Shown in pieces: positions 28,862 to 30,846 of a stretch of 33,481 nt of DNA. A program made the position numbers and the translations under genes. The notes beneath the pieces are model-generated. The model did no database searches. It saw only the letters and a program-made list of their open reading frames with translations, and was not told where the DNA came from. The stretch's first letter is position 1. Each line of letters begins with the position of its first letter. Source of the stretch: a virus; UHGV virus genome UHGV-0034894; one strand, written 5' to 3'.

Positions 28862-29002
28862 ATTTAAGTCTCCACTTTCGTCTATAGCGCAAATTTATAC
28901 GAAAACGGATTATTCAGCAATACGGCAATTCTATATCATCCTGGATTAAAATATCCGATAACGCATAATCACCGTCCCTGTATACAACATGGATGAATCC
29001 AA
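28862..29002. promoter_or_regulatory. Divergent cI/cro promoter-operator region
   Basis: 141-bp AT-rich gap between divergent regulators; contains GATAACGCATAAT motif also found downstream of cI. Confidence 0.5.
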
Positions 29003-29677
29003 ATGATTGATACTACCGATATCCTTTCTCAAAACATCAAGTACCTGATGGACAAAGCCAAGATAAGCTCGATAACTGAGCTGGCACGTCGGTTACAACT
29101 GAACCAACCAACGCTACACAGGCTGGTATCAGGAGAGGTGAAAGATCCGAAATACGCAACGTTAAAGCAGATCGCCGACTACTTCCACGTGTCACCAATA
29201 GACCTGGCAGAAAGGAGCCTTCAAGAAATGGAGAAAGAGGACGCGACGGGTATAAAAACGTATATTTCTCTTAGGTTTAATAAAGTACCTGTTTTGGGAA
29301 ACACTCAGCTAGGCGTTGGAGGACTTTGGAGCGACACCCAATATTCAGTAGGTAGCAGTGATGGTTTCATATACTGGCCGACAAAGGATGAAGATGCATA
29401 CGCCCTGAAATGTGTTGGTGATTCAATGATGCCTAGAATCAAAGAGGGTGAGTTCGTAATCGTCGAACCCAACCACGACTACACTCCTGGTGATGAAGTA
29501 CTTGTGGTTACCCGGGACGGTGAGGTCATGGTTAAAACCTTCTTGTTCGAACGCGATGGCCTGTTCCATCTAATGTCTGTAAATGAAGATCATCCACCAG
29601 TCAGAGTACCACGCGAAAACATTGAAAAAATCCATTACGTGGCGGGGATCGCCAAATCCGCGCTACGCATGTACTAA
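29003..29677 (+). CDS. CI-like prophage repressor (HTH plus S24 LexA-like autopeptidase domain)
   Basis: N-terminal HTH; C-terminal GDSM catalytic Ser context and conserved Lys (VMVKTF). Confidence 0.85.
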   Translation: MIDTTDILSQNIKYLMDKAKISSITELARRLQLNQPTLHRLVSGEVKDPKYATLKQIADYFHVSPIDLAERSLQEMEKEDATGIKTYISLRFNKVPVLGNTQLGVGGLWSDTQYSVGSSDGFIYWPTKDEDAYALKCVGDSMMPRIKEGEFVIVEPNHDYTPGDEVLVVTRDGEVMVKTFLFERDGLFHLMSVNEDHPPVRVPRENIEKIHYVAGIAKSALRMY

Positions 29678-29707: not shown

Positions 29708-29740
29708 AAACCGCTCTCCACAAGGGCGGTTTTCTTATTT
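29708..29740 (+). terminator. Rho-independent terminator downstream of cI
   Basis: AAACCGC-(11-nt loop)-GCGGUUU followed by a U-rich tract. Confidence 0.5.
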
Positions 29741-29761
29741 GCAAAATAATTCATTTTCGTA

Positions 29762-29790
29762 TTGACGCAAAATCCCATAACGCATATAAA
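29762..29790 (+). promoter_or_regulatory. Strong sigma70-like promoter (TTGACG-17 bp-TATAAA) with overlapping operator-like ACGCATA motifs
   Basis: Near-consensus -35/-10 with 17-bp spacer read directly; CGCATAATTAATGCG near-palindrome just downstream. Confidence 0.5.
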
Positions 29791-30052
29791 TACGATACCG
29801 CATAATTAATGCGTTTTTTAATACCAGCTCTTTAACAAACTGAACCGCGTGACAGGTAAGCCGCAGTACTCCTGGCAAAATGAAATGGCACCCGATGGGA
29901 TCGAGGTAAGCGCCGAGTCCGTATGCGTACGGTAAGCGTAGAGGACAACACCGCGACGAACTGATAAGTCACGCAAGTTGAAACGCCCCGACGATGGGGC
30001 GCTTAGTTCCTTTAACTCTGGGTGGCCGGAAGGGTACCCATGCTTAAAGAAA

Positions 30053-30622
30053 TTACTGGTTGTAAGGATCGTAATCCGTGATTGCCTTCCCCGGATTTTC
30101 ATCTTCAGCAGGCAGTCTGGCCTCTAAAGCATTTCGGTTGAACAGATAGGAAGCCCTACAGTGCGAACAAACCATATTAACGGCTCGCCCAAGGCCTGGC
30201 TTAATAACCAGACCTTCCGCTTGCAATATAGATTTTCTCTTTTGCTCGTAGCAATTGGGACAAATATAAACCGGAGATTGGTCAGTATCTGCAGAAAGCT
30301 TGCTGCGATAGACCAGAGTACCCCGCATAGGCTGGTAAAGTTCATAGCTCGCCGCTTCAGCGGCCCAGTTCTCTTGCTTTACTTTCTCATTTTCCAGTTC
30401 AACAATTTTCTCCTTAGCCGCAATCAGCAGCTCCTGAAGCGACATTTGCTGCATCTGAACATCCATTAGCTTATCGAGTAAGGTGTGCGTCTTCTCTTTA
30501 ACTGCATAGTCGACAGTCAGATTCTGAATCTCTCTTGCTGCTCCAACCGCGCCTTTAATTGCTCCTCCCACGCCGGATAACGATTCAGTTATCCGGGAAA
30601 GAATTCCTTTTTCTTCAGACAT
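30053..30622 (-). CDS. Coiled-coil / zinc-ribbon protein (189 aa) in the immunity region; candidate accessory gene
   Basis: CPNC...(21 aa)...CSHC zinc-ribbon motif after a predicted coiled coil; convergent with cI. Confidence 0.6.
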   Translation of the reverse strand: MSEEKGILSRITESLSGVGGAIKGAVGAAREIQNLTVDYAVKEKTHTLLDKLMDVQMQQMSLQELLIAAKEKIVELENEKVKQENWAAEAASYELYQPMRGTLVYRSKLSADTDQSPVYICPNCYEQKRKSILQAEGLVIKPGLGRAVNMVCSHCRASYLFNRNALEARLPAEDENPGKAITDYDPYNQ

Positions 30623-30636
30623 ATCTAATCTCTCTC

Positions 30637-30684
30637 AAACTGTAGGGGTGAAGAGATATTAGACGATTTCTCACTGTAGGGGTA
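30637..30684. repeat. Direct repeat ACTGTAGGGGT x2 (33 bp apart) immediately upstream of the 189-aa gene
   Basis: Read directly; candidate regulator binding sites. Confidence 0.5.
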
Positions 30685-30761
30685 CAAGGAGAACCACCTC
30701 GCCTGATGTGGTTAAAAGCAGGCACTCGATGATATCCATGTAATTGCTGTGTGTAGTCTTT

Positions 30762-30788
30762 GCCCGCCGCAAATGACGGGCTTTTTTA
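30762..30788 (+). terminator. Plus-strand rho-independent terminator upstream of the early plus-strand operon
   Basis: GCCCG-(10-nt loop)-CGGGC followed by UUUUUU. Confidence 0.5.
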
Positions 30789-30846
30789 TGTCTGAAAGCG
30801 CACTCGCAACAGCGCGCTCCCCGATATGAAAAAAGGAATACAACCG

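Follow-up and report, generated by a model that had tools for sequence, protein, structure and literature searches.

What kind of protein is encoded by the solitary gene next to the cI-type repressor gene of the viral genome UHGV-0034894, and how would the phage that carries it keep it in check? The genome was analysed as one stretch of 33,481 nucleotides, here called the window, in which the gene in question occupies positions 30053..30622 on the minus strand (stop codon included), starts with ATG and specifies 189 amino acids according to the list of open reading frames (ORFs) and its re-derivation. A preliminary description, made from the sequence alone, had read it as a defence or exclusion gene of a family that it did not recognise. 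Judged by sequence comparison and by a structural model, the protein is a member of the family of Rip1 (ring interacting pore 1), and the gene, referred to below as rip1, probably encodes a single-protein abortive-infection defence of this family. The reading as a defence gene is supported by the homology to Rip1, by the variability of the slot that it occupies and by a promoter region homologous to that of sieB, the phenotype of this particular allele being assigned by homology.

Assignment to the Rip1 family

The assignment is carried by comparisons with solved structures. A profile of the family searched against them retrieved the PDB entry 9oox, which is titled “ring interacting pore 1 (Rip1)”, with an E-value of 1.5e-66, and the single sequence compared by phmmer matched 9oox_L with an E-value of 8.5e-48 over residues 3-166. 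As seen in the Foldseek results, 9oox is the cryo-electron microscopy (cryo-EM) structure of Rip1 of Escherichia phage HK446 bound to the small terminase of phage T6. Structure prediction had been proposed in the preliminary description as a check, and the resulting AlphaFold2 model superposes on chain M of 9oox with an E-value of 5.7e-11, a template modelling (TM) score of 0.89 (target-normalised) and a root-mean-square deviation of 2.1 Å over 128 columns; the best match of the model to any unrelated PDB fold in Foldseek had an E-value of only 0.35. In a BLASTP comparison with gp37 of HK446, the sequence identity was 52% over 166 residues (E 1e-59). The family is therefore not a new one, contrary to the first impression, since Rip1 was published early in 2026, complete with a solved structure.

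The databases of protein families gave little guidance. The gene is labelled “hypothetical protein” in GenBank and RefSeq, and the only match among the PHROGs was phrog_1244 (E 6e-40), whose annotation is function-less. For this ORF, no match above threshold was obtained in Pfam, NCBIfam or PADLOC, the PADLOC-DB version used being that of 2023, which is older than the Rip1 publication and contains no model for the family. A word-index homology search returned just 16 relatives, as against a far larger family in the exhaustive profile search, which yielded 3411 cluster representatives with the cut-off at E≤1e-3 and still 2046 with the cut-off at E≤1e-10. The ORF is a real gene, because its translation matches phrog_1244 at the E-value given and has relatives among these 3411 cluster representatives.

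An alignment of 55 diverse members was used to define the conserved core of the family. Tyr93 and four cysteines are invariant in this alignment, and nearly invariant are Leu76, Trp86, Leu95, Tyr105, Leu133 and a histidine two residues before the first cysteine. A KSILQ motif also belongs to the set of residues characteristic of the family. Of the 20 positions conserved in at least 80% of the members, 18 are kept in the window protein, including the four cysteines, Trp86, Tyr93 and Tyr105.

According to a recent review, Rip1 is a prophage-encoded antiphage protein that is not toxic alone, and its homologues are widespread in Proteobacteria, chiefly in prophages (PMC13434031). Mutations by which phages escape from Rip1 map to the portal gene in Pseudomonas phages and to the small terminase gene in E. 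coli phages, and in the cryo-EM structure 12 Rip1 monomers encircle an 11-mer ring of the small terminase and leave a central pore (PMC13434031). The N-terminal part of Rip1 is an amphipathic helix, the C-terminal half touches the small-terminase ring, and complexes of Rip1 with the ring cause dye release from liposomes (PMC13434031). A meeting report and a paper on Avs2 are consistent with this account (PMC12908700, PMC13601566).

Domain organisation of the protein

In the AlphaFold2 prediction, for which an alignment of 14 sequences served as input, a helix at residues 7-34 is followed by a long one at residues 39-90 and by a beta-rich domain at residues 93-166. The first helix, encoded by codons 7-34 at 30521..30604 on the minus strand, is rich in glycine and alanine and is predicted to be amphipathic, its hydrophobic moment of 0.35-0.42 being the maximum of the whole protein, and it is presumed to be the membrane-active segment; a hydrophobicity scan of the 189 residues found no segment resembling a transmembrane helix. 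The long helix (codons 39-90, 30353..30508, minus strand) is predicted with values of 76-88 in the predicted local distance difference test (pLDDT) and aligns to chain M of 9oox. It is followed by the C-terminal domain (codons 91-166, 30125..30352, minus strand), which is delimited by the predicted strands and the cysteine positions and is presumed to be the sensor that contacts the ring. The protein contains exactly four cysteines (C121, C124, C152 and C155), arranged as CPNC-27-CSHC and identical with the four that are invariant among the 55 members; on the minus strand, the CPNC motif is encoded at 30251-30262 and the CSHC motif at 30158-30169. The preliminary description had foreseen a coiled coil followed by a zinc ribbon, which is right as secondary structure, the coiled coil corresponding to the long helix and the zinc ribbon to the beta-rich four-cysteine domain, where it remains a prediction from the cysteine motif.

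The protein ends in a tail (codons 167-189, 30056..30124, minus strand) with the final residues DYDPYNQ, which is predicted with pLDDT values below 50 and does not occur in HK446 Rip1. The tail is common to a few enterobacterial homologues (P0004 and P0010) and resembles the RYDPFSE end of gp30 of the Mu-like Pseudomonas aeruginosa phage JBD30.

Relationship to Rip1 homologues and to other exclusion systems

The closest point of comparison is HK446 Rip1, with which the window protein shares the order of helix, helix and four-cysteine domain. The window protein is 25 residues longer and has a valine in place of His118, and the identity between the two is distributed unevenly, with 61% in the N-terminal helix, 56% in the long helix and 49% in the C-terminal domain. 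Because the C-terminal domain is more diverged than the N-terminal parts, the ring recognised by the window protein, and with it the trigger, may differ from that of HK446 Rip1. The two genes are also alike in lying antisense within an early operon, close to the immunity region, and in being preceded by a 5′ module of the PsieB/sas type with two ACCCCTACAG repeats. However, HK446 is a lambdoid phage with rip1 in the sieB slot of its PL operon, between a gene for an “anti-restriction protein” (ral-like) and the N gene, a position like that of P22 sieB, which has ral on one side and gene 24, the analogue of N, on the other, whereas the phage of the window is of the DUF2800/DUF2815/PolA/Prim-Pol type and carries rip1 immediately beside cI.

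More distant members are found in phages of other kinds. JBD30 gp30 belongs to the family with 28% identity (E 3e-16), has the four cysteines, ends similarly in YDP[YF] at its C terminus, falls into the same length class and is encoded by a lone gene that points against its neighbours. Unlike the gene in the window, it is located in the late region, between gp29, a “DNA binding protein”, and the large terminase gene, and it lacks the PsieB/sas module. HkaP of phage HK620, present also in HK629 and HK630, is a distant member (29% identity over residues 38-163) that lies antisense in the PL operon; it has long carried the annotation “putative superinfection exclusion protein”, and the annotated terminator tL1 is situated inside its ORF. 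In every phage context inspected, namely HK446 and 720R6 (sieB slot, PL operon), HK620/HK629 (hkaP), PhiR29_2 (next to cI), RcWaterboi and JBD30, the rip1 homologue stands by itself and is directed against the flanking lytic genes.

The resemblance to SieB-Esc-sas, the superinfection exclusion system of P22 and lambda, is of a different nature. Here too the gene lies antisense in an operon of the early-left type, downstream of a nut site, but the proteins are unrelated, the shared part is confined to the non-coding 5′ module, and the SieB family is absent among the Pfam and PHROG matches of the window protein. RexAB and further membrane-acting abortive-infection effectors of prophages, as well as pore-forming toxins and gasdermin-type defences, lead to the same outcome, in that the membrane of the infected cell loses its integrity when a phage product acts as the trigger. 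RexAB of lambda is encoded beside the repressor. Rip1 differs from all of these systems in that it shows no kinship with them in sequence or fold, unites sensor and effector within a single small protein and uses a phage ring as the template for assembly.

Genomic context and variability of the slot

As first described, the 189-amino-acid ORF converges on cI and runs counter to the early genes on the plus strand, which was borne out by the ORF listing and the re-derivation. The repressor gene (29003..29677, plus strand) was identified from the ORF list, Pfam and the PHROGs; its product of 224 amino acids combines a helix-turn-helix (HTH) domain of the Cro/C1 type with a Peptidase_S24 domain and is a LexA-type cI. 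On the minus strand, divergent from cI, follow the genes for a Cro-like HTH protein of 66 amino acids and a Prim-Pol/DUF5906 primase. On the other side, the plus-strand genes begin at 30826 with an ORF of 56 amino acids, an ORF of 300 amino acids (phrog_6784) and a DUF2800/PD-(D/E)XK exonuclease, so that rip1 stands alone on the minus strand with the cI gene on one side and the early operon on the other.

Sequences 100% identical to the region of the window occur in the temperate Escherichia phage vB_EcoM-606R2 (ON470579), in three sibling records and in chromosomal prophages of E. coli. Chromosomal prophages with a match to a 1.1-kb region of it were found in 168 of the 5426 complete E. coli genomes, with a coverage of at least 80% in 49 of them, and the cluster of the protein at 90% identity has 102 member sequences. 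The preliminary description had regarded the position next to the repressor as a hotspot, and the slot does vary among related prophages, which carry this allele, a rip1 of 44% identity or unrelated DNA. Between the window and E. coli IAI1 the flanks are about 98% identical, whereas the Rip1 proteins are just 44% identical. Three further prophages (L008, L009 and L010) have in this interval about 400 bp of mutually different DNA without a Rip1 homologue, and the corresponding spans (L008 2816-3190, L009 2640-3010, L010 2690-3020) contain no annotated gene. The limits of the variable cassette in the window are at about 30005 and about 30733.

In phage ON470579, beyond the right end of the window, a gene for a “TIR-like domain-containing protein” (38874-39635; L001 14021-14401) directly follows the DNA polymerase gene and may be a second defence-type accessory gene.

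The control region upstream of rip1

The preliminary description had credited the gene with upstream direct repeats of its own. A repeat search located two 11-nt direct repeats, ACTGTAGGGGT, at 30639-30649 and 30673-30683, 34 nt from start to start; with at most one mismatch, 3 matches to ACTGTAGGGGT were counted versus 0.31 expected, a number that was reached in none of 100 shuffles. The repeats are kept upstream of rip1 in IAI1 and HK446, of P22 sieB and of lambda-type sieB, and they have diverged upstream of an ECs1072-family gene. While the repeats are present, above chance and conserved, they are not stand-alone operators but parts of a module of the PsieB/sas type.

Over about 115 bp upstream of the ORF, the sequence is 86% identical to P22 over 86 nt and 81% identical to lambda over about 105 nt, and the P22 record BK000583 annotates the homologous stretch as the sieB promoter with a “sieB RNA start site”. 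The promoter features were transferred from this record through sequence alignment. In this way a PsieB-type promoter was predicted on the minus strand (30656..30686), with the -35 element TGTACC at 30686-30681, a spacer of 19 bp and the -10 element TAATAT at 30661-30656. Mapping the P22 start by alignment gives the A at 30649 as the predicted +1 and a 5′ untranslated region (UTR) at 30623-30649 on the same strand. The predicted mRNA begins with the proximal repeat, which supplies its first 10 nt, and the distal repeat coincides in part with the -35 element and the spacer; in P22, the mapped sieB RNA start likewise coincides with the proximal repeat. Upstream of the promoter the alignment shows a conserved hairpin, AACCAC-N10-GTGGTT (30692..30713). 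On the plus strand it reveals a homologue of the P22 antisense RNA sas (30611..30725), which spans the start codon of rip1, the 5′ UTR and the promoter.

The sequence of P22 sas, to which the plus strand of the window aligns, is known from RNA sequencing (PMC13397905). It pairs with the sieB mRNA and thereby switches translation between the sieB products (PMC12197685). In rip1 no Esc-like internal start is evident, residue 53 being the first internal methionine. By its switch P22 is said, following work of Ranade and Poteete in 1993, to be shielded from its own SieB. A complementarity of 14 nt between the repeat in the 5′ UTR and codons ~152-156 of rip1 looks like chance and was discarded; it is not conserved at the DNA level because the HK446 protein has HRCN where the window protein has SHCR.

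The module as a whole comprises the two ACCCCTACAG repeats and the hairpin, together with a weak promoter and, encoded on the opposite strand, an antisense RNA. It also precedes the rip1 of HK446, the divergent rip1 of E. coli IAI1, lambda-type sieB and, in a more diverged form, an ECs1072-family gene. The last two cases were observed in E. coli BEN2908 (lambda-type sieB, L016 1864-2551) and in E. coli C289, where the gene for an “ECs1072 family phage-associated protein” adjoins that of a LexA-family repressor (L015 2016-2551). From these sequences, a single regulatory cassette appears to serve three or more cargo genes that are unrelated to one another. We tentatively suggest that the module of about 115 bp might be a portable self-immunity switch, reused by unrelated abortive-infection effectors such as SieB, Rip1 and the ECs1072-family protein, although we consider it somewhat doubtful.

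The early operon and its terminators

After the cI terminator at 29708-29732 comes a PL-like promoter (TTGACG-17-TATAAA, 29762..29790, plus strand), which lies amid operator-like repeats of the cI/cro region (29739-29804). This region contains copies of the motifs ATAACGCATA and ATACGAAAAYGRATTAT of the cI-cro intergenic region, exact matches to ATAACGCATA occurring only at 28958 and 29777, and it looks like an equivalent of PL/OL that is aimed rightward into the antisense strand of rip1. A consensus promoter scan with strict rules found neither the PL-like nor the PsieB-type promoter, both of which were assigned via repeats and homology. The PL-like promoter is overlapped by an ORF of 47 amino acids (29735-29878 in the window) that is annotated in the record ON470579.

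The promoter is followed by a conserved leader of about 180 nt (29827..30004, plus strand) that opens with GCTCTTTAACAA at 29827-29838, which we take to be the rrn-type boxA consensus and which has its single exact match in the window here. Related prophages retain the leader even where they have a different repressor and different operators, and a copy with 86% identity was found in a prophage region with different neighbours (L007, E. coli CX04). A helix that closes the leader (29847-29853/29968-29974) shows a compensatory change, albeit with few pairs and in one divergent copy; the folding energy of 29827-30012 was no better than that of shuffles (z = 0.48), and Rfam at gathering thresholds gave no match anywhere in the window. 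The leader is probably an antitermination element of the nutL type. In CX04, a minus-strand gene for an “ECs_2282 family putative zinc-binding protein” of 150 amino acids (L007 3559-4011) lies about 390 bp past the divergent boxA leader, and this protein has no match to the Rip1 profile at E≤1e-3.

Two terminator-like structures border the cassette. At 29984..30001, 52 nt past the rip1 stop codon, a GC-rich hairpin, CGCCCCGACGATGGGGCG, at which the leader ends, resembles a terminator for rip1; the variable cassette has its left edge here. On the other side, Rfam RF00034 and an alignment with rprA point to an RprA-like 3′ module with an intrinsic terminator (30742..30787, plus strand; terminator 30762-30787). 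The match to RF00034 at 30678-30791 (+) has 50.2 bits and an E-value of 9e-6, below the gathering score of 70, and the RprA-like segment, AATTGCTGTGTGTAGTCTTTGCCC with the terminator, shares 85% identity with the chromosomal rprA gene along 46 nt. An identification as an RprA gene was rejected, as the match is sub-threshold and chimeric, with only the 3′ ~50 nt being RprA-like and the 5′ part being the sas-like module. All related prophages, whether they carry rip1 or lack it, have retained the segment, which may be merely a terminator or an RprA-like, Hfq-binding 3′ end for phage transcripts. Transcription of the plus strand would pass antisense through rip1 and the sas-like region and would reach the RprA-like terminator before the early genes.

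Proposed mode of action and self-immunity

Rip1 was reportedly introduced as a single-protein antiphage defence by Patel et al. (Nature 651:1060, 2026). If the window protein acts in the same manner, the weak PsieB-type promoter would provide a low level of expression in the lysogen, and the protein would be harmless by itself. When a superinfecting phage enters late gene expression, its small-terminase or portal rings would be bound by the C-terminal four-cysteine domain, about a dozen copies of Rip1 would gather round the bound ring, and the N-terminal amphipathic helices together with the long helices would make a pore in the inner membrane, with the cell dying before phage progeny are completed. 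Sensor and effector would in this manner be combined in one chain.

A prophage with such a protein would need to avoid its own suicide upon induction, and the resident phage probably keeps its own rip1 silent during its own lytic growth, as P22 does with sieB, because the gene lies antisense within the early operon, with its promoter flanked by cI operators and its boxA leader, and because the sas-like antisense region has been kept. The early transcript from this promoter would cross rip1 in antisense direction and yield a sas-like RNA that ends at the RprA-like terminator. This RNA would stop the translation of Rip1 or shift it to an N-terminally truncated product that does not form pores, and the terminase and portal rings of the resident phage would then trigger no suicide upon induction. 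Our hypothesis is that PsieB drives rip1 expression in the lysogen and that antisense transcription counters it during lytic growth of the resident.

Alternative explanations

Several points weigh against the reading as a Rip1-type defence gene. The defence phenotype, the trigger, the pore formation and the expression of the window allele in the lysogen are taken over from homologues, and the mechanistic details of Rip1 come from a review, a meeting report and a PDB title, which are secondary sources. As the family has no model in the 2023 version of PADLOC, there is no independent call from a defence database. The confidence of the AlphaFold2 model is moderate (mean pLDDT 70.8, predicted TM-score 0.41), the 23-residue C-terminal tail is missing from the solved homologue, and the window protein has a valine at His118, present in 51 of the 55 aligned members, and a serine at Pro116, present in 44 of them. 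The PsieB-type promoter, finally, was assigned by homology only and has a poor -35 element besides its 19-bp spacer.

The two substitutions and the poorly predicted tail could mean that the protein has the Rip1 fold with a lost or changed activity, either as a decaying allele or with another partner. However, a valine or isoleucine variant is common to the whole subclade from Escherichia, Yersinia and Rahnella, whose ORFs are intact, a similar YDP[YF] tail ends JBD30 gp30, and the presence of the allele in the 49 complete E. coli genomes with at least 80% coverage and the 102-member cluster argue for purifying selection, so that we regard a loss or change of activity as improbable. It is also conceivable that the protein serves the development of the resident phage as a checkpoint of lysis timing or packaging that senses the phage's own rings, exclusion being incidental. 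The window does encode a small terminase, a large terminase and a portal of its own, and the Pseudomonas-phage homologue adjoins a large terminase gene, yet rip1 is oriented opposite to all flanking lytic operons and carries the sieB-type promoter with the sas-type antisense module, the published phenotype of Rip1 is defence (PMC13434031), and rip1 appears dispensable because closely related prophages have no rip1 in the slot; a developmental role is accordingly judged to be quite improbable. The position beside the immunity region and the combination of a coiled-coil-like helix with a C4 motif would equally suit a regulator with affinity for nucleic acid or RNA polymerase, such as an antirepressor, a DksA/TraR-like protein or a replication regulator, and zinc-ribbon families gave weak sub-threshold matches (PF08274, E 0.023; TIGR02098, E 0.25). 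Against this, no regulator family exceeded the threshold in Pfam, NCBIfam or PHROG, and Rip1 is the only significant match in both sequence and fold, which makes a regulator highly improbable; neither an antirepressor nor a replication regulator, the two identities that the preliminary description had held to be incompatible with its proposal, was found. A DksA/TraR-like identity was dismissed in its own right, with no match to the Pfam family zf-dskA_traR at E≤0.1 and a cysteine spacing of CxxC-27-CxxC.

Significance

With the Rip1-type defence gene as the preferred reading, the protein itself is of a kind already known, and its identification is a routine yet useful re-annotation, by which an entry labelled “hypothetical protein” and the function-less phrog_1244 can now be annotated. 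At least 49 of the 5426 complete E. coli genomes carry the allele of the window, and in others this slot is occupied by a divergent allele. Paired rip1 alleles between flanks of about 98% identity are natural material for mapping the residues of the C-terminal domain that determine ring specificity. The only element that is possibly new is the placement of rip1 in the control cassette of sieB and sas, and this shared module offers a testable answer to the question of how a prophage escapes its own sensor of terminase and portal rings.

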